The notes: generated by a model from the sequence alone, not told the origin. Shown: positions 6,259-24,399, counted from the stretch's first letter. The stretch is 64,000 bases of DNA from Candidatus Saccharimonadota bacterium (GCA_034521515.1 JAXHMH010000002.1:88379-152378); one strand, 5' to 3'. Made by a program: numbers and translations.

Positions 6259-8515
6259 CTAAAAGTTTTTGAATCTCGGCTGACGATAATATGCGGTCGT
6301 ACACACGTACATAGCCGACTGTCCCATAGAATGGTCTTTAGCAACTGCTGCTGAATCTGCCGCCAATACCCATATGCGTATCCGTATTATCATCTGGTCA
6401 CTGGCCGGATACATAACTGCATTCAGAGGTTTCTGTTTTTTTGCCACATAAAAGCGTTGCTCATCGCCATCATATGTAAGCGTTAATAGATGCCAATCCG
6501 TGTCTACGGGGACGGATGTTCCACCTTGTGAGTAATTGCCATTAACCGCGGCTGCGTAGTTGCCTGATGTATTCGCGCCAATCCAATACGCAGAACTCCC
6601 TAACGTCGTTGAAGCTCCCTTGAACAAAAGATACGTCCATGTGCCCGTCCAGTAGCTAAACTTCGCCCAAACGGATATAGTTACCTCATCAATATTTTCA
6701 GGAATCGCCGGTACACTTAAGTGATCTTGGGAACTAGAAAAACTGTAGGCACTATTTGGCCTGCCGTGATGATCGGAAGTCATTGATACATCGCCGCCTG
6801 TTGATCCATCATTAGCATGCGGCGTACTGTCCTTGACATTACCGTTCAATGCCCAATGCGCGATAAGACCCCTCTGTAAATCCGAAATTTTTATATGTGA
6901 GCCTCCGGTTTTATATAGCTCCGCAGCACCCGTCGCGTCAATCGCGTAACTATGTACCCGAAAGCCATCAGCAAGACCTTCCCACATAGCAGTAGTACCC
7001 ATTTGTGAGCCAACGTAAAGTCCATCGCTATATGTAATGTTGTAGTTACTTGAGAATGTATCAGACAGAGCGCCGTCCTTGTATACCGATAACGTGTCAC
7101 CATCTTGACCCACAAACAGCCAGTGCGACCATGTGTCTTGCTCGAGGAGCTGCGTCGTATTAATGCTATTATCACCAATTTCTGTTTTTATTGAACCGTT
7201 AGCTCGTTGTGTAAGCTTAAAACCTGAGCCGTCCGTCATTGACAAGAAGCTGGACAAAAGTTCTGTACCACCATTTGTCTCCTCACTTGTGTTGAGCCAT
7301 AACGAAATGCTGAAATCGCTACTGGCATGCCTAAGGTTCGAGTGGTCTGGTATATGGACATAATCTGTACTACCATTAAAAGCAAGAGCCGCAGACGAGC
7401 GCTCAAACCTGTCTGACGCTGAAGTTGCTCCTGAAATCGTCCCATGGTTACTGTATGGAGTTGCATCCCGAGCGTGCCCATCCAGACTCCAATGCCCCGT
7501 CAACATCTTCTGTGCTTTAGAAATAGATATATCTTGATTATCACGGTATTGGTAACGAACTATCACGATACCAGAGCCTCCGTCACCGCCAGTTGAGCCT
7601 TCATCTAGACGTGGCCGCCACCGCCGCCACCGCCAGAGTTTGGAGCACCATCTTCTGCTGAAGCCACCAATCCCCTGAGCCGCTATCAATACCACCGTCA
7701 CCACCCCCACCGATACCTCCTACGCCGGGGCTGCACTATACCAGCGTGCACCGCCGCCGCCAGCAAATGCACCATTTTCCCCCCAGTTAGCAAATTGTGG
7801 AAAGTGTTTTCCTGCACCTCCATCAGTGGACGCTTCCCTGATGATTCAGCGCCACCGCCACCACCGCCGCGACGACTTGTGTGAACACTGGTAGAATTAC
7901 CGTCACTTCCATCATGACCCTGACCTGATACCCCAGTACCACCGGAGCCATTCGGACTATTTGAATGCGAGCCTCCACCGCCACCGGAACCCCCATTAAC
8001 TGCATGACGAACTGTACCGCTTGCCCCACCACCGCCTCCTCCGATGGCAGTAAGCGTCCCGAGCGTTGAGTCTCCGCCATTTTCACCTGTCTGTGCTTCA
8101 GTGGTTCCATCACCACCGGCTCCACCACCACCCACGACAATAGGTATGCTTGTATCAATATTAAAGTTTGATTCATATATAAGCCCACCTGCACCGCCTC
8201 CACCGCCGCGATAATACGCCGCCGAACCACCGCCTCCGCCTCCGCCTGCAACGACCAACACTTCAGCGTAACCCGACTCTACAACCGACAACGTACCAGA
8301 CTCCTTGAATGCGTGATATCTGTATCTTCCTATTTCTGCAACCTCACCTCCTTCAAAATGCGGATACACAACAGTACCTCCCGGCGACTCTGGAAGCCCA
8401 TCGATAAACATAATATAGCCGGCGCGTGCTACTGTTGAGAAAAGAATATAGAAACAAGCGACACCGAAGCAAGCAAATATCTGTTTTTACGAATTTTGCG
8501 GTAAAGTTCTTTCAT
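6259..8515 (-). pseudogene. secreted glycine-rich-domain plus tandem LamG/ConA-like lectin-domain protein, interrupted by several frameshifts
   Basis: Track ORFs 7698..8411 and 6259..7710 overlap. Between about 7600 and 7880 the sensible glycine-rich translation (GGAGKHFPQFANWGENGAFAGGGGARWYSAAP / VGGIGGGGDGGIDSGSG / EDGAPNSGGGGGGGH / GGDGGSGIVIVRYQY) hops between all three frames. The signal-anchor MKELYRKIRKN... starting at 8515 is joined only after a shift near an A5 run. The LamG-like repeats read HWSLDGHARDATPYSNHG...FNGSTDYVHIP and HWALNGNVKDSTPHANDG. Confidence 0.65.
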
Positions 8516-13307: not shown

Positions 13308-14333
13308 TTAGTTGCTACTAATATCTGAGATACGACTGTGTAAATCGTCCAGTGCAGAGCGTTCGGACGTACCGGCACGGATTAGTTCGTCTGCACCGTT
13401 TTCCAGCCGTCTTGTTACTTGAGTAAGCTCGTCCGCGAAATCTTGAAGCCTTGCTGTTGACAACGATCCATCTTCGGCTAAACGCATAAGCATCATTAGT
13501 TGGTTGCCGATATCATCCAGCCTAGCTACTCCTGGGAGGGATTCTACAGCTCCCTCTTGATCACGCAGAGATTGCATTTCTTTGCGCAATCCAGTGCTAA
13601 TTTCTCCAAAGTCATCGCGCAAATCTGCTATTTTTTCTATGTTTGCCTGAACCTCTTCATCGCATTGCTCTTGGTGCTCCTCTACAGACGCTGCTTCGCG
13701 TTCTTCTACATGCTGTTCTACGCCTTCTTCAGAGTAAGCCTTTTCAGGATCTTCGTTAATCTCGCCTACTCCTTCGACTAAGTGTGCTCGGTTATCGTCG
13801 ATAAGGAGTACAGCATCCTTTACCTCGGGCTCCATGCCCTGAACTGCCTCGAGTTTATTTGCTACCGCAGATTCTATGTTACGCTTTGTTAAAGAAAAAT
13901 TTTCTGCATAATCACGGAAAGCACTGCTCATATAGCCCAAATCGCTGGGGTCTACACTACTGCCATCATTCATACTAAACAATTGTGAACTTATGTTCTT
14001 GAAGCCATTTATTTGATCGTCAAGACTTCTAACCCATGTGTTTTGATCATTACTTTCTACTTGCAGATAGTTTAAGCGACTAGTAAGAGCTTCTTTTTTA
14101 GGCTCTGCTTGTTCAAATGCTGTCTCCAAAGCTACCGCACTCATTTGAGCCTTAACTTCCGGTGCTATAACCTCTGTCAAAGCCTTTAACCGCTCACTTT
14201 GCTCGGCTTCGCCTAAACCCTCTTGCGAAACCTGGATAACTTCCCGCAAGCCTTCGGCCTGGAGCAACTCGACAGTTTCTTGTGGTTCAAACTCAGCTTG
14301 TGGTGGTAGTGCTACTTTTTGTTCTTGAGACAT
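13308..14333 (-). CDS. acidic coiled-coil hypothetical protein (341 aa)
   Basis: Long ORF with a leaderless-type promoter directly upstream. No family recognised. Confidence 0.6.
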   Translation of the reverse strand: MSQEQKVALPPQAEFEPQETVELLQAEGLREVIQVSQEGLGEAEQSERLKALTEVIAPEVKAQMSAVALETAFEQAEPKKEALTSRLNYLQVESNDQNTWVRSLDDQINGFKNISSQLFSMNDGSSVDPSDLGYMSSAFRDYAENFSLTKRNIESAVANKLEAVQGMEPEVKDAVLLIDDNRAHLVEGVGEINEDPEKAYSEEGVEQHVEEREAASVEEHQEQCDEEVQANIEKIADLRDDFGEISTGLRKEMQSLRDQEGAVESLPGVARLDDIGNQLMMLMRLAEDGSLSTARLQDFADELTQVTRRLENGADELIRAGTSERSALDDLHSRISDISSN

Positions 14334-14339
14334 AGCTAC

Positions 14340-14368
14340 ATTATACTACATTATTGCTTAATAAGCAA
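14340..14368 (-). promoter_or_regulatory. sigma70-type promoter TTGCTT-N17-TATAAT, 6 nt before ATG 14333 (leaderless mRNA)
   Basis: The minus strand reads TTGCTTATTAAGCAATAATGTAGTATAATGTAGCT-ATG. Confidence 0.55.
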
Positions 14369-14470
14369 TAGCATTATTCCATATATAACGCACACCTTTA
14401 ACGTAACTGATTTTCGGTAATGTGACCTTAAAAAATGTGGACTCAGCTCTAAAGAATTTTCTAGATAATC

Positions 14471-15016
14471 TTACTCGGACTTTTCGCTTTTGGTGACATC
14501 AAGTACTAAACCTCCCAGCTTCCCAGTTTCAATCCCGGCATCTGTATCATGGTATCTAGCTTCGTGTATAAACTCCGGTTTGCCTTTCATGGCGTACATT
14601 ATTTCAAGTGGTTCAATATGCTTGTCCGTTCCGGTGTAGGCTTGCGGTAGCTTACAGTGCACCATCGATAACTCCTGATCAAACATGTCAAACGTTACCG
14701 ACTCCCCGTTGTCAGCCTGTCTAGTAATTTTATTAGGCTGATCTTTTGTGAGCGTATCAAACATGCGCTGTACGCGACCATTTTCTTTTGACCGGCTTCC
14801 ATACCCGTTCTCTACAGCACGATCATCATCTGGTGCTAAGACTCGTAGCTGTAGTGCTCCTTTTGGTAATTTTAGCGTGGTCAGTGGATCCATAACCACT
14901 GGATCAATGTCTCCGTTGGCAAATTCTACGATAGTTTTCTGATTATGGAGTAAGGTTGCATGGAAAGCTTTTTCTGAATCATAAAAACGTTCTGGGTTGT
15001 TTTTGTTTTCTGACAT
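14471..15016 (-). CDS. hypothetical protein (181 aa)
   Basis: ORF with a near-identical promoter architecture upstream. Confidence 0.55.
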   Translation of the reverse strand: MSENKNNPERFYDSEKAFHATLLHNQKTIVEFANGDIDPVVMDPLTTLKLPKGALQLRVLAPDDDRAVENGYGSRSKENGRVQRMFDTLTKDQPNKITRQADNGESVTFDMFDQELSMVHCKLPQAYTGTDKHIEPLEIMYAMKGKPEFIHEARYHDTDAGIETGKLGGLVLDVTKSEKSE

Positions 15017-15091: not shown

Positions 15092-15991
15092 TCAGCTGCT
15101 CAGATGTTGTTTAATCTTGTCTACAACATCTGCGATCACAACCTGTGATTTAACGAGATAATCGTCTACGCCGAGTGATTTAGCTCGCTCTTTGTCACTT
15201 TCTTGACTTAGAGCTGTGAGCATAATCACCTTAACGTTGGTTGTTTCTGGTGTATTTCGCAAAATATCTAGCACGTCAAAGCCGCTGACCTTGGGCATCA
15301 TCACATCAAGCAAAATAAGATCTGGCTTATAATCCAACGCTGCAGAAAGCGCTTCTTCACCGTTAGGCACGCGCTGTGTCTTAAAACCCTCGGCATTCAA
15401 CCTAACTTCATAGGTGTTTGCGAGCGCATCATCATCTTCAACTAATAGGATCTTTTTGGGATGATTACCAGGAGTATCTGCTTGTGCAGCTTCAGCTGGT
15501 TGTTGCGATGTGTTTTCCGTGGCTGCCGGTGGCGTGGCTTGAGGTTCAGCTGTCTGGTTAGTTTCGGGTTGATTTACTGGCTGAGCTGGTTCGGGTGTAT
15601 CTGTAGGAGTCGCGGCGGGTTTGGTTTCATTATTTTGTTCAACCTCCGCCGCCGAGTCTGGCGTCACGTCGTCGGCTGGTGCTGAATTAGCGCTTGGTGT
15701 ATCTACGTTAACATCAGGAGTTGGTTCAACTTGTTGATTAGTTGCAGCTTGAGCTTCACCCGTATTTGCCTCTGTTTGATTTTCTGCTCCGGTAATGTCA
15801 GCTGGTGGCTCAGCAACCGGTGAAGGCTGAGTTGTTGAGTTATCTGCCGACGTAGTGTCTGTATCAGCAGGCGCAGTGTTCGGCTCTTGCGGCGCCGTAG
15901 ACTCCGTAGGTTGATTCATGTCCGAAGGTTGTTGTTTTTGATTCTGTTCATCCATAAGCATAATGCTACCCCAGACATTCATAAATATCAA
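15092..15991 (-). CDS. response-regulator receiver domain preceded by a ~175-aa Pro/Thr/Glu/Gln-rich disordered N-terminus
   Basis: Canonical receiver (ILLVEDDD, DLILLDVMMP, MLTAL, YLVKS). The exact start is uncertain (several Met in the first 13 codons). Confidence 0.75.
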   Translation of the reverse strand: MIFMNVWGSIMLMDEQNQKQQPSDMNQPTESTAPQEPNTAPADTDTTSADNSTTQPSPVAEPPADITGAENQTEANTGEAQAATNQQVEPTPDVNVDTPSANSAPADDVTPDSAAEVEQNNETKPAATPTDTPEPAQPVNQPETNQTAEPQATPPAATENTSQQPAEAAQADTPGNHPKKILLVEDDDALANTYEVRLNAEGFKTQRVPNGEEALSAALDYKPDLILLDVMMPKVSGFDVLDILRNTPETTNVKVIMLTALSQESDKERAKSLGVDDYLVKSQVVIADVVDKIKQHLSS

Positions 15992-16047: not shown

Positions 16048-17643
16048 TTATTTTAAAGCTTTTATAAATCCGCTAAACATTGGGTGGGCGCGATTAGGAC
16101 GTGACTTAAACTCCGGGTGAAACTGGCTCGCCAAAAAGAATGGGTGATCGAGTCCTTCAATTATCTCTACCAAGTGACCGTCCGGACTGGTACCACTCGC
16201 TCTAATCCCCCAAGCTTGGTATTGATCTCGAAAATCGTTATTACACTCATAACGGTGACGGTGACGTTCTACAATGTTTGATGTTTTGTATACCTGTTCA
16301 GCTAAACTCTTTTTCACCAACTTACATGGATAATTACCCAGACGCATTGTGCCACCGGTATTTTCCTTGCCTTTTTGATCTGCCATAGTGTTAATCACCA
16401 AACACTTGCTGGTGTTGTCGAGTTCTTCAGAAGTCGCATCTTTGATTCCACCGTTGCGTGCAGCAGCCACTACTGCCATCTGTAGACCAAGGCATAGACC
16501 GAGATATGGAAGCTTGTTGGCGAGGGCATATCGAGCGGCGTTAATCTTACCTTCTAGCGCACGTGTACCAAACCCGCCAGGCACGACAACCCCGTCAATA
16601 TCCTGGAACACCGGGCTGAGATCTACGTCGCCTTCTAGCTTTTCAGCATTGATCCAGTGCAGATTTAGGTTTGTGTCATTCGCCCATGCAGCACTTTTGA
16701 GTGCCTCAAAAACCGACATATAGGTATCTTGGTTATCCATATATTTGGCGACAACTCCAATATCTACCGTGTTATTCTGCTTTGCCTTAGCACGATCCAC
16801 CATTTTGCGCCAATCTTTAAGGTGTGGTCTACTTACTCTTAAGTTTAGTCTCTTGGCTATAGTCTCGGTTATATTAGTGTCCTCTAGTGTAAGCGGCACT
16901 TCGTAAATACTCGAGGCATTAGGCAGCAGTGCTATGGCTTCTGGCGTTACACCGCTAAATAAGCTGAGTTTATTGATAACCGATTTAGGCGCCTTATCTT
17001 CACTTCGTGCCACCAATACATCCGGAACAATTCCGAGTCCTCTAAGGTCGCGAACAGCGTTCTGAGCCGGCTTTGTCTTCAGCTCACCGCTTGCACCAAG
17101 ATAAGGCAAATATACAACGTGCACGAACAAACTGTTTTCCCGACCAACCTCAAACGAGAGTTCACGGATGGCCTCAAGAAAACTCAATCCCTCATAATCA
17201 CCTACTGTACCGCCTATTTCTACAATATGGACATCAAACCCTTTGGCAGCCGCCTTGATTTGTTTCTGGATTGCCTTCGTAACATGCGGAATAAATTGCA
17301 CGGTTTTACCAAGATACTTACCACGGCGCTCGTCTTCAATGACTTGACGCAATACTCTCCCGCTCATCAAGCTACTGCTTTGCGTCAACTCTTGATCTAA
17401 AAACCTTTCATAATGCCCTAGATCCAAATCGGTTTCAGCACCATCCTTAGTAACAAAACACTCGCCGTGTTCTGCCGGATTTAGCGTACCAGCATCGGTG
17501 TTTAAATAAGGGTCGCACTTCTGAACGTTTACACTCAAGTTACGAGCTTTTAAGAGGTTGCCAATGGAAGCGGCCGTAATACCCTTTCCTAATCCAGAAA
17601 GCACACCACCAGTTACAAAAATGTATTTAGTCGGTTTTGCCAC
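16048..17643 (-). CDS. pyrG: CTP synthase
   Basis: KYIFVTGGVLSGLGKGI N-terminus and glutaminase domain GLCLGLQ. GTG start with AAGGGG upstream. Confidence 0.95.
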   Translation of the reverse strand: MAKPTKYIFVTGGVLSGLGKGITAASIGNLLKARNLSVNVQKCDPYLNTDAGTLNPAEHGECFVTKDGAETDLDLGHYERFLDQELTQSSSLMSGRVLRQVIEDERRGKYLGKTVQFIPHVTKAIQKQIKAAAKGFDVHIVEIGGTVGDYEGLSFLEAIRELSFEVGRENSLFVHVVYLPYLGASGELKTKPAQNAVRDLRGLGIVPDVLVARSEDKAPKSVINKLSLFSGVTPEAIALLPNASSIYEVPLTLEDTNITETIAKRLNLRVSRPHLKDWRKMVDRAKAKQNNTVDIGVVAKYMDNQDTYMSVFEALKSAAWANDTNLNLHWINAEKLEGDVDLSPVFQDIDGVVVPGGFGTRALEGKINAARYALANKLPYLGLCLGLQMAVVAAARNGGIKDATSEELDNTSKCLVINTMADQKGKENTGGTMRLGNYPCKLVKKSLAEQVYKTSNIVERHRHRYECNNDFRDQYQAWGIRASGTSPDGHLVEIIEGLDHPFFLASQFHPEFKSRPNRAHPMFSGFIKALK

Positions 17644-17795
17644 CGCTTTTTTACCCCTTATTTATGCCCTTAACTCTAGCATAGCCCCGCCCGAACCTAA
17701 AGTGTTTTATCTTATTAAAACTTCTTGCCTACCAATCCCAATTATCTAAAACGTGCTGTCATAGACTACTAACCCGCCTACTAGACCATATTTTC

Positions 17796-18410
17796 ACTAT
17801 TTCCAAGACCAGGTCCTGGAAATAGTCTACTGCTGCGAAGGCCGGGAGAATCAAATACCCTGTTACTTTTTGTCCGCTAAAAAGTAACCAAAAACCTCGT
17901 CACGGCTGAAAAAACAAGAGTACGAAGCAGCACTGGTTGGCCGCGCCGGCAGAACGACAAGCGGCTCCGCCAGTTTTTCTAGTTACTTTGGCGGAGCTTG
18001 ACTACCGGCTTGACTCGTCCAACCAGCACTCCTTCGCTTCTGTTTTTCAGATGTGACCCTCATTAGTTGTGTTCTTTTTAAAGAACACATAATTAACCGG
18101 AATGGCGAAGCCATTCCGGGGTCTGGCTCTGCAAAGTCCTGACTAGATGTTGTGTAAAAGAGGCGCCCTTGGGCGCGAGAGCTGTCTGACCCCTCACCAC
18201 TCTCGAAAGAGATGGTGAGGGGGAGTTCCGACAGCATTCCCTTTTTGCCTGCCACCAGGCAAAGCCTGCTGCGCCGCAAAAAGAGACGAACCAGCGAGCC
18301 TGTTTTAGACAACAGATAGATCAAGAGTTTGCAGTCGCCAGTCGGTTCTTTGCATACTTTCTTGCGACCAAGAAAGTATGGCGCATACGGGTCGCCTCGG
18401 CGACCGGCGC
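17796..18410. ncRNA. candidate large (~615 nt) highly structured RNA of unknown class
   Basis: At least 11 local hairpins and 2 long-range helices (details in findings). This is the largest non-coding gap in the window, and the only ORF in it (17983..18423) is compositional junk. The strand is unresolved. Confidence 0.5.
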
Positions 18411-18513
18411 AACAGTTATCCAAACAAAATTCGTATTACAATACATATCTATTGAGAATCATGTTATATCAAATATAAAAATGTGTTTTAGTTGAATTAC
18501 GTAATTGTTGGAA

Positions 18514-19719
18514 TTACTGTAACTGCTGCTTAGCGGCGTCGAGTTGTGGATCACGATCAGCCTCAAAATCGTCTTGAGTTAATTCAACCGTTTGATCGGG
18601 CTCTATGCCCTCCTTATCTATATTTCTGCCATCCGGCGTAAACCAACGTGCGATCGTAACTTTTAGTTGAGCACCTCCGCTTAATCGCACTAGACGCTGT
18701 ACGCTACCCTTACCATAGGTTTGTTCGCCGATAATGGTCGCCAACTCGTAGTCCTGTAAAGCACCGGCCACAATTTCGCTCGCACTCGCACTACCCTCGT
18801 TCAGCAATACAACCGTTGGCACGTCACGCAACAAAGCTGAGCCCTCGGAGCGGAATGTCTTGACTACGACATCCTCTCGTTTTTCTTCTAGAACCGTCTC
18901 GCCGTTCTCTACCCAAAGACCTGCTAAACTGACCGAGGCGTCCAGTAATCCTCCAGGGTTGTTGCGTAGATCAAGTATCACACCCTCAACGCCGACACTA
19001 CGGAACTTTTCGGCAGCCTCTTGTACCAACCTTTCGGTATCATTGCCAAACCGACTCACTTTCAAATAGCCTATACCGTCAGTTACTTCGGATTCAACAC
19101 TCGGAATAACTATTTTGTCACGGGTTATTGTCAACTCCAGCTGTTTTGATTGCTCACGGATGATTGTTAGCGTTACGTCGGTACCTTCTGGCCCACGGAT
19201 TTTACTTACTGCCTCGCTTACAGAAATATCGTAAGCGTTTTCGCCGTCTATCTCGGCTACAATATCTTGAGCGCGAAGGCCGGCTGCTTCTGCAGGAAAA
19301 CCCGAAATGGGTGCCACGATAGTTATATAGTTATCTTCACTCTTGCTAAGCTCAGCACCAATACCGGTAAATGTCCCGGAAAGCCCTTCTTCAAAATCAG
19401 CCGACTCTTCAGCATCCAAATATTCCGTGTAAGGATCACCCGTCGCTCCAGCCAAGCCTTCTTTGAGTCCGTCCATGAGTTCATCAAGTTCAAGCTGTCC
19501 GTCGTAATTATTACGTAGTGATGAGTACAAATCTTGTACCTCATTCATGTCAAGCGAATCTGGTAAATCTTGGTTGGTACTTATGGGATCAACTGATGAT
19601 AGATTGAATTGCAGTGTTCCGTTTCCAACCAAAAACCCCAAAGAAAAAATAACTACAACTACAAAAATTGATTTTGCCCAGCTCGGCACTGTAATAGAAT
19701 TGCGCGATCCACGCCCCAT
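18514..19719 (-). CDS. S41 family C-terminal processing peptidase with PDZ domain
   Basis: N-terminal TM anchor, PDZ (GFPAEAAGLRAQDIVAEIDG), and catalytic region LLNEGSASASEIVAGALQD. Confidence 0.85.
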   Translation of the reverse strand: MGRGSRNSITVPSWAKSIFVVVVIFSLGFLVGNGTLQFNLSSVDPISTNQDLPDSLDMNEVQDLYSSLRNNYDGQLELDELMDGLKEGLAGATGDPYTEYLDAEESADFEEGLSGTFTGIGAELSKSEDNYITIVAPISGFPAEAAGLRAQDIVAEIDGENAYDISVSEAVSKIRGPEGTDVTLTIIREQSKQLELTITRDKIVIPSVESEVTDGIGYLKVSRFGNDTERLVQEAAEKFRSVGVEGVILDLRNNPGGLLDASVSLAGLWVENGETVLEEKREDVVVKTFRSEGSALLRDVPTVVLLNEGSASASEIVAGALQDYELATIIGEQTYGKGSVQRLVRLSGGAQLKVTIARWFTPDGRNIDKEGIEPDQTVELTQDDFEADRDPQLDAAKQQLQ

Positions 19720-24030: not shown

Positions 24031-24399
24031 TTAAACCATTAAGAGATAGGCTACTAATACGCCAGTGATCACCAGCACTAAGACTGCAGCAATAATAAGC
24101 ATGCTTTTAGAACCGTGATGTTTTTCGCCTACCGACGATCCAGTAACTGGTTGGTTGGCAGCTGGTGTTTGCGGTTGCTGCTGTGCAGGATCCTGCACAG
24201 GCTGTTGCGGTTGTGGCGGAGTCTGCCCAGCTGGCGGCGTTGGTGGCGTAGCTGGTTGTGGGTTTTCTTGAGGAGCAGGCTGCTGCTCTGGCTGTGGTGG
24301 CGTTGGTGGCGTAGCTGGTTGTGCTGGCGGTTGAGGATCTCCGCTCGGTGTTGGTTCTTTTGGTGGTGTTGGCTGCTGTGGATTTTCGTTCGGATTCAT
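24031..24399 (-). CDS. proline-rich protein with C-terminal TM anchor
   Basis: PQQPTPPKEP... repeats (27-nt direct repeat 24232-24260 / 24297-24325), then MLIIAAVLVLVITGVLVAYLLMV. Confidence 0.55.
   Translation of the reverse strand: MNPNENPQQPTPPKEPTPSGDPQPPAQPATPPTPPQPEQQPAPQENPQPATPPTPPAGQTPPQPQQPVQDPAQQQPQTPAANQPVTGSSVGEKHHGSKSMLIIAAVLVLVITGVLVAYLLMV

Follow-up and report, generated by a model that had tools for sequence, protein, structure and literature searches.

Positions 17829 to 18416 of the window, the whole 64,000-nucleotide stretch of Candidatus Saccharimonadota DNA analysed here, hold a non-coding, quasi-palindromic unit of 588 nt, which we consider, with a probability of roughly 55%, to be one copy of an unannotated family of non-autonomous, MITE-like foldback DNA elements. 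The non-autonomous mobile reading was preferred because the element behaves as a discrete insertion. The unit has a defined anatomy and belongs to a family that is spread across phyla and shows insertion-like, multi-copy behaviour; the window itself contains a single copy.

A structured tract between pyrG and the S41 peptidase gene

The element lies in the non-coding gap between pyrG (16048-17643, minus strand) and the gene for an S41 peptidase (18514-19719, minus strand), both of which were confirmed by Pfam. The first-pass annotation had assigned positions 17796-18410 of this gap to a large structured RNA, and every local hairpin that it described was found in the sequence. An inverted-repeat search recovered exact or near-exact repeats at 17796-17826 (15 nt, 93%), 17862-17888 (10 bp), 18068-18089, 18097-18119 (10 bp), 18190-18222, and 18353-18380 (12 bp), and the long-range helix proposed between 17924 and 18019 was recovered as an inverted repeat of 17923-17943 with 18016-18036 (81%). 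The hairpin at 18163-18176 turned up in a terminator scan, while the hairpins at 17964-17997, 18244-18263, 18299-18314, and 18391-18404, as well as the long-range helix 18181-18186/18230-18235, were contained in the minimum free energy (MFE) folds.

The structure of the tract far exceeds chance. The MFE of positions 17780-18425 was -276 kcal/mol on the plus strand, compared with -191.6 +/- 6.0 for shuffled sequences (z -14.1), and -299.8 kcal/mol on the minus strand, compared with about -206 (z -13.0). The tract is non-coding and strongly structured, and its only ORF (17983-18423, minus strand) had no Pfam match. A reading of the tract as a decayed gene was rejected, since homologs were found and the ORF had no Pfam match. 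The tract delimited in the first-pass annotation is thus real, although the unit defined by the terminal-repeat alignment is 17829-18416: the earlier right boundary fell 6 nt short of the element's end, and the 15-bp palindrome at 17796-17826 lies just outside the left end, at a distance of 2 nt, because the unit starts at 17829. This palindrome was absent from the homologs and is not part of the family unit. It was also noted that an independent short-read contig with an identical pyrG gene (L001) ends at approximately window position 17857, inside the element.

No known RNA family was identified. A cmscan search of the whole 64-kb window against Rfam 15 at gathering thresholds gave 0 matches, a more permissive search of 17500-18700 (E<=10) yielded chance-level matches only, and the homologous loci did not match any Rfam family either. 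The covariance models of ROOL (RF03087), GOLLD (RF01998), OLE, raiA, and HEARO had no match in the window or in the homologous loci, and those of RNase P, tmRNA, SRP, 6S RNA, and group I and II introns were likewise without a match, in agreement with the earlier judgement by eye. The terminator scan returned 3 weak sites compared with 1.6 expected. A cluster of intrinsic terminators, that is, GC-rich hairpins followed by a U-tract, was not found in the tract; the T-tract of the core hairpin described below is located upstream of the hairpin, and the core module is not an intrinsic terminator because it has no U-tract.

Several other features of the window were recorded. No tRNA, rRNA, or riboswitch was identified with Rfam at gathering thresholds. 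The response regulator encoded downstream of pyrG (15092-15991, 299 aa) has a low-complexity N-terminal extension of about 180 aa, rich in P, T, Q, A, E, and N, whereas the orthologous receivers in relatives are 129 to 139 aa. Two ORFs without a Pfam match (13308-15016; 341 aa, acidic, and 181 aa) separate the response regulator gene from the L27 gene; in at least one relative (L002), the two genes are side by side. Low-complexity ORFs were also located at 7698-8411 (237 aa, rich in glycine runs) and at 24031-24399 (122 aa, rich in Pro and Gln, with a hydrophobic C-terminal segment).

Element anatomy and the conserved core hairpin

The element as a whole is assigned to no strand, and its parts are given on the plus strand. 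Alignment of its left end to the reverse-complemented right end gave a score of 45 (z 5.9 against shuffles) and terminal inverted repeats of about 85 nt, each with 2 hairpins. The left terminal inverted repeat (17829-17912), which aligns with the reverse complement of 18328-18416, begins with ACTGCTGCG and holds the hairpin P1 and an A-rich linker. P1 (17862-17888; GTTACTTTTT/AAAAAGTAAC, 10 bp) corresponds to the conserved core hairpin in inverted and diverged form, and the inverted-repeat search paired it with 18349-18374. Together with CCAAAAAC, it forms a segment (17862-17895) that repeats the 3' core, likewise inverted and diverged; the reverse-complemented core reads CWTACTTTCTTG-loop-CAAGAAAGTAWG-CAAAGAA. 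P1 was kept as GTTCCATTTTTG..CAAAAACGGAAC in 3 homologs (L006, L066, and L143) and had the canonical form in 3 others (L065, L128, and L147); the left copy as such was near-canonical in L065, L128, L147, L104, L062, and L152. It is followed at 17889-17908 by a CAAAAAC linker and the 5' strand of the closing helix (CGGCTG), which are complementary to 18336-18352; the counterpart of the closing helix in L006 is AACAGGCGG/CCGCCTGTT.

Interior module A (17924-18035) consists of a long-range helix around the hairpin 17964-17997. Its flanks, GCGCCGGCA..CAAGC and CCGGCTKGACTC, are conserved, and the hairpin is unlike that of L006 in sequence with the pairing retained. In L036, the left end is followed by module A in the same order as in the window. 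The interior junction motif (18181-18235) has the layout GCTGTCTGA, variable hairpin (18190-18223), GAGTTCCGACAGC. In the form CTGTYTGA..GAGTTCCG (window 18183-18232), with a hairpin of varying length, it was present in L065, L066, L143, and L147, and also in the Roseateles-type elements and in Ralstonia GMI1000.

The right terminal inverted repeat, which extends from 18328 to 18416 in the terminal-repeat alignment, ends with CGCAACAGT. It contains a GTCG segment, here called X, and the invariant pyrimidine linker TTCTTTG (18341-18352), the GTCG being complementary to the loop CGAC of the adjacent core hairpin. This hairpin, S2 (18353-18380; CATACTTTCTTG-CGAC-CAAGAAAGTATG), is the signature of the family. 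The remaining segment (18381-18416) is a terminal bipartite hairpin, with an outer GCGC/GCGC helix and an inner part at 18389-18406, and the A-rich end GCAACAGT; nearly all lineages have at this position a hairpin of another sequence, followed by CGAAA or GCAAC. Within the family, the copy in the window is somewhat degenerate, with a canonical right end and a diverged left end.

Full-length homologs were identified in L006/L012, L065, L066, L143, L147, L128, and L098. The elements are about 480 to 600 bp long, with terminal inverted repeats of 60 to 100 nt. From the outside to the inside, each terminal repeat consists of a small bipartite hairpin, a near-invariant 12-bp hairpin, and a pyrimidine linker, which reads TTCTTTG on the outward-reading strand and runs on into the helix that closes both ends. 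In the interior, a small number of conserved junction motifs carry hairpins that vary in sequence and length. The reverse-complemented right end had a partner 400 to 520 nt upstream of the core in 11 independent lineages, with z-scores of 5 to 25. Terminal hairpins were present at both ends though the left and right sequences differ, and since each end has its own complementary hairpins despite this difference, local folding is what is conserved. Furthermore, the interior halves are inverted copies of each other in several members. The element is bounded by long terminal inverted repeats, and its pseudo-two-fold symmetry explains why no strand could be chosen in the first-pass annotation. Strand calls from the counts of G.U and A.C pairs over whole elements were rejected, with too few and mixed events. 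The comparison of lineages indicates that folding is under selection, because size and design are constant in the 11 lineages, the interior motifs are shared across phyla, and the substitutions in the hairpins are compensatory.

The longest block common to the window and L006 was the 12-bp hairpin with its flanks (window 18346-18380). A scan of metagenome contigs for the exact pattern TTGCWTACTTKCTTG-N4-6-CAAGAAAGTA matched at least 120 contigs, in which the inner hairpin and its 5' flank (YTCTTTG-CWTACTTTCTTG-loop-CAAGAAAGTAWG) were nearly invariant. The flank TTCT, which was not demanded by the pattern, was present in essentially all of the matches listed. After clustering, 41 sequence contexts of very different G+C content were obtained among the matches listed. 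In 111 distinct copies among the matches listed, double, compensatory changes were found at 7 of the 12 stem pairs, along with 6 G.U wobbles and 1 A.C pair. The length of the loop was 4, 5, 6, or up to 10 nt. The 3 to 5 nt located directly 5' of the TTCTTTG linker are complementary to this loop. The match reached 4 nt or more in 28 of 40 lineages, where 5.2 would be expected and the highest count among 2000 permutations was 13.

Readings of the core as a promoter of the sigma-70, sigma-54, Bacteroidetes, or phage type were rejected by eye, as the spacing and hexamers misfit and the loop varies in length. Scans with the 18-mer CAAGAAAGTAWGGCGCAT were also set aside: the matches in viral contigs were chance matches, and among 30 genome matches only that in L036 was real, 3 matches in Saccharibacteria being to a conserved coding gene.

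Copies, carriers and insertion sites

In the relatives, the genes are found in the conserved order prfB-ftsE-ftsX-CHAP-S41-pyrG-response regulator, and the spacer between the S41 gene and pyrG is about 86 to 107 nt (L002/L003, L004/L005, and L013), compared with 870 nt in the window. With a gap of about 90 nt as the usual state among the relatives in Saccharibacteria, the extra sequence in the window is an insert; this short-gap comparison is with distant relatives only. The S41 protein was 100% identical to one from a Candidatus Saccharibacteria MAG, whereas that of the next relatives was only about 60% identical. When the homologous regions upstream of pyrG were collected, as proposed in the first-pass annotation, a structured homolog was found in L006/L012. 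In L006, L007, and L012, pyrG is preceded by a gene for a 966-aa WD40 protein and a non-coding tract of 715 nt, and the tract in L006 is homologous to that in the window and had fold z-scores of its own of -10 and -12. The homolog in L006/L012 is located at the same site and in the opposite orientation relative to pyrG compared with the window copy, so that the tract is not a pyrG leader. Nor is it a single-copy, locus-specific RNA tied to pyrG: the tract is an insert at this site, reversed in the L006 lineage, and belongs to a dispersed multi-copy family. The WD40, or beta-propeller, gene (L006 6395-9295), which is located between the S41 gene and the element, is found neither in the window nor in the other relatives.

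A filled and an empty site were identified in Roseateles. The spacer between the genes for a GH88 protein and an MFS protein is 646 nt with the element inside in Roseateles sp. BYS96W (L165) and in L123, and 95 nt without the element in 6 contigs (L166-L171), with the GH88 proteins of filled and empty loci belonging to the same 90%-identity cluster. The BYS96W locus is situated at about 45.2-45.9 kb of JBIGIA010000012.1 (GCA_043555975.1). In the alignment, the flanks join exactly at the element ends (GCCGGGATTTCG...CGAATTCCCGGC), and the empty allele (L166 3693-3705, compared with L165 4225-4240) has kept one TCCCGGC, which corresponds to the last 7 nt of the element. No direct repeat was found at the flanks of the window element and no clear target-site duplication at the Roseateles site, where the sole candidate is the palindromic CCGG inside the terminal TCCCGGC. 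The target in Roseateles may be recognised via complementarity to the element end. It was also noted that the ends of the Roseateles element form GCCGGGA/TCCCGGC hairpins. A comparison of Faecousia strains for a second filled and empty pair gave only a 73-nt length difference.

Reduced forms of the element were also found. Ralstonia CFBP 8695 contains an internally deleted copy of 176 nt in the glgX-glgB spacer, which consists of the two ends only, and solitary end modules exist (L036 6290-6390). Both orientations relative to the neighbouring genes were observed, and many copies are located at the 3' ends of convergent genes. In the 41 contexts among the matches listed, no protein family, transposase, or nuclease recurred in the neighbourhood, and no autonomous IS with the same ends was found among the neighbouring genes. 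The genes located between inverted copies encode MgtE, a priA-like protein, and membrane proteins.

Flanking proteins and database records placed the family in Saccharibacteria (the window and L065), in the Oscillospiraceae Ca. Faecousia and Pusillibacter faecalis, and in Betaproteobacteria, where it was found in Roseateles and where larger parts of the element are present in the Ralstonia solanacearum complex, in Comamonas, and in Variovorax; the matches in Burkholderia, Caballeronia, Paraburkholderia, and Chitinibacter were short where listed. A total of 144 plasmid records matched, mostly Ralstonia megaplasmids, at 2 to 6 places each and at 18 places in strain RRA.1, none of which carried an annotation of the element. 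In Ralstonia pseudosolanacearum GMI1000, one of five copies is located at 756869-757364 of the megaplasmid NC_003296.1. Diverged copies were found in 4 contigs with one sample prefix (L065, L066, L084, and L104), one of which was assigned to Saccharibacteria, and a Ca. Faecousia contig contained at least 4 copies among other repeat modules. The intergenic regions of the Ca. Faecousia contig L118 (4500-13000) are full of several repeat families of 70 to 300 nt in both orientations, which include a 666-nt tandem unit and yield many spurious ORFs. At L065 13930-14050, a near-consensus promoter (TTGATT-N17-TATAAT) and a putative tRNA gene, identified by eye, are located about 20 to 60 nt beyond the element end.

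The family is not phage-borne, as the gapped core pattern had 0 matches among 2.9 million viral contigs. A BLAST search of phages and plasmids with the window element gave no match. The family is unnamed in Rfam 15, in the annotations of the 144 plasmid records, and in the part of the literature covered by full-text searches, in which neither the hairpin sequence nor the topics of ornate RNAs and MITEs in Saccharibacteria and Ralstonia gave a match. PMC10969869 mentions a MITE in Ralstonia avrA.

If the foldback-element reading is correct, the element would be moved in trans by an enzyme encoded elsewhere. The putative enzyme would recognise the folded, sequence-conserved ends, either in single-stranded or extruded DNA or in read-through RNA. 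The density of hairpins would then stem from the two-fold palindromic design and selection for foldability rather than from an ornate tertiary RNA fold, and the window copy, which lies between the S41 gene and the promoter of pyrG, is probably simply read through by transcription.

Alternative readings and known systems

The size, the junction motifs, and the 12-bp hairpin are conserved from Patescibacteria to Betaproteobacteria, which speaks against a MITE-like nature, as this conservation exceeds that expected of a decaying selfish element. Together with the lack of an observed target duplication or transposase and the position of some copies beside tRNA and rRNA genes, it keeps 2 other readings in contention, a large RNA and an RNA end module.

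According to the first of these, which we hold to be distinctly less probable than the mobile-element reading, the family is a new class of large structured non-coding RNA with paired 5' and 3' ends, a defined fold, and a functional hairpin, and its mobility is secondary. It would account for the extreme fold z-scores in the window and L006, for a length and interior motifs (CTGTYTGA-hairpin-GAGTTCCG) that are constant over 3 phyla with variable-length hairpins at fixed positions, for the compensatory changes and the excess of G.U over A.C in the core hairpin among the matches listed, and for the several diverged copies retained in contigs with the same sample prefix; having no Rfam match, the class would be new. 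However, the left end is the inverted right end, so that neither strand is privileged, and G.U and A.C pairs, counted across whole elements, are too few and too mixed to single one out. Neither a promoter nor a terminator signal was seen, most stems are perfectly Watson-Crick paired, and both orientations occur at one site. The clean indel between near-identical strains, the internally deleted copies, and the solitary ends also argue against a large RNA. The novel structured RNA of the first-pass annotation thus stands as far as structure, the absence of an Rfam match, and compensatory changes are concerned, but the unit turned out to be a multi-copy insert with terminal inverted repeats that is polymorphic for presence and absence.

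The second reading, which appears unlikely, is that the conserved unit is a cis-acting RNA end module in which the hairpin and an upstream UUCUUU protect or process RNA ends, the full element being 2 such modules back to back. The module is likened to the REP/BIME stabilisers of mRNA and, more speculatively, to a triple-helix cap beside an RNase P site, because it precedes a tRNA or a tRNA-like minihelix. In gut Oscillospiraceae, the module stops 1 to 2 nt before the mature 5' ends of tRNA-Lys, 5S rRNA, and 23S rRNA (L053 632-660 and 983-1011; L057 585-613; L164 3004-3041, P. faecalis), in rRNA operons with the layout 23S-tRNALys-tRNA-5S, and the first G of each of the three genes belongs to the module stem. 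Outside Oscillospiraceae, a two-part hairpin and an A-rich tail are found at the same position. The module may also border directly on a convergent tRNA gene at its 3' end (L053, L057, L081/L091, and L164). The many copies at the 3' ends of convergent genes are a further point in favour of this reading. The position before tRNA and rRNA genes suggests a role at the RNA level. The 5S gene of P. faecalis has a sigma-70-like promoter where the module would be.

Further features in favour of the end module are that the loop pairs with the 5' flank and that the TTCTTT linker is a parallel, Hoogsteen-type match of the purine arm AAGAAA and changes with the arm, CTTTTT occurring with GAAAAA and TTTTT with AAAAA, a rule that is based on few independent variants. 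An H-type pseudoknot or triplex alongside the full 12-bp stem was rejected on linker length, by geometric reasoning and not by computation. A triplex with loop pairing is on the same reasoning incompatible with the covariation-supported 12-bp stem, and would, if real, be an alternative conformation to it. In addition, the module has no U-tract and is thus not an intrinsic terminator, and its orientation relative to the neighbouring genes is mixed. The most elaborate proposal, slightly more doubtful than the end module itself, is that the family is a structured mobile nucleic acid in which the end module would switch from the hairpin to a U.A-U/C+.G-C triplex pseudoknot upstream of a tRNA or tRNA-like helix, as a counterpart of the MALAT1/RNase P arrangement, and would have been domesticated in Oscillospiraceae as a leader of tRNA-Lys, 5S, and 23S.

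It is improbable that the core is a recombination or inversion site. On this view, a tyrosine recombinase would use the inverted arms of 12 to 13 bp around a spacer of 4 to 6 bp as its core sites, which would make the element invertible, and sites of the lox/FRT/dif type have a similar layout of arms and spacer; the interior is flanked by inverted repeats, and 2 lineages have opposite orientations at the pyrG site. However, the spacer ranges from 4 to 10 nt, with 4 nt being too short for a crossover region, and it covaries with the flank, which indicates base pairing rather than protein spacing. No recombinase gene recurs in the 41 contexts among the matches listed, and the left and right ends retain distinct subtypes across lineages. 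It can practically be dismissed that the hairpins cluster by chance or that the tract is an assembly artefact or a decayed gene, as the one short-read contig that breaks within the tract is outweighed by z-scores of about -13 to -14, homologs in over 100 independent assemblies as well as finished genomes, and an ORF without a Pfam match.

If the foldback-element reading is correct, a single unannotated family accounts for hairpin-dense "orphan" spacers in Saccharibacteria, gut Oscillospiraceae, and Ralstonia solanacearum, and such tracts would no longer be miscalled as novel ornate RNAs or spurious ORFs. Two questions are then raised, which enzyme recognises the folded ends and whether the end module has been co-opted for RNA processing or stability, and both are testable in the cultured carriers GMI1000 (Ralstonia pseudosolanacearum), Roseateles BYS96W, and Pusillibacter MM59.

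Among known systems, the large ornate RNAs ROOL, GOLLD, OLE, raiA, and HEARO resemble the element in size, helix density, and conserved junctions with variable stems, and some of these classes (ROOL and GOLLD) are located near tRNA genes. The element differs from them in being two-fold inverted and indel-polymorphic, with no covariance-model match and 0 matches in 2.9 million viral contigs. The likeness to the MALAT1-type ENE triple helix with its tRNA-like RNase P site would include a U-rich strand, a U-rich Watson-Crick strand, and an A-rich strand with one C.G-C position, placed directly upstream of a tRNA or tRNA-like helix; it follows sequence logic only, and the geometry conflicts with the full stem. 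PATEs derived from IS200/IS605 are also non-autonomous, with hairpin ends, a short guide-like complementarity beside the hairpin, and no target duplication. Their ends are, however, on the same strand, whereas the ends of the element are inverted repeats including the flanks, their guide pairs with the cleavage site, whereas the flank of the element pairs with the hairpin loop, and no gene for TnpA or TnpB was found near the element.

REP/BIME and pneumococcal BOX elements, which are thought to act on mRNA ends, are likewise modular intergenic palindromes that are sometimes clustered with other modules, as in L118. REPs are 20 to 40 nt long, tagged with GTAG/CGTC, species-specific, and present in hundreds of copies, whereas the element is 0.5 kb, GTAG-less, low-copy, and cross-phylum; moreover, the hairpins in the window all differ, and none recurs elsewhere in the window.

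The closest likeness in behaviour is to MITEs and other small palindromic mobile repeats (Correia, ERIC/IRU, RUP, bcr1, and Nezha), which are non-coding, intergenic, multi-copy, and transposase-less, have terminal inverted repeats, and can fold as whole units into a long hairpin, with presence/absence polymorphism, internal deletions, and either orientation. The window element is correspondingly short (588 nt) and non-coding with terminal inverted repeats, and the insertion polymorphism was seen in Roseateles; an autonomous IS with the same ends, as expected for a MITE, was not found among the neighbouring genes. Typical bacterial MITEs have terminal inverted repeats of about 4 to 30 bp and a length of less than 500 bp (PMC10969869). 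By comparison, the family has longer terminal inverted repeats (60 to 100 nt) that are themselves built of hairpins and a length of about 0.5 to 0.6 kb, with no target duplication seen or parent IS found, and its end hairpin is near-identical across phyla, whereas the known MITE families are genus- or family-specific. For a MITE-like family, the long structured ends, the 12-bp hairpin shared across phyla, the complementarity of loop and flank, the mirror-repeat pyrimidine tract, and the placement of end-module copies exactly where tRNA and rRNA genes have their 5' ends would all be unusual.
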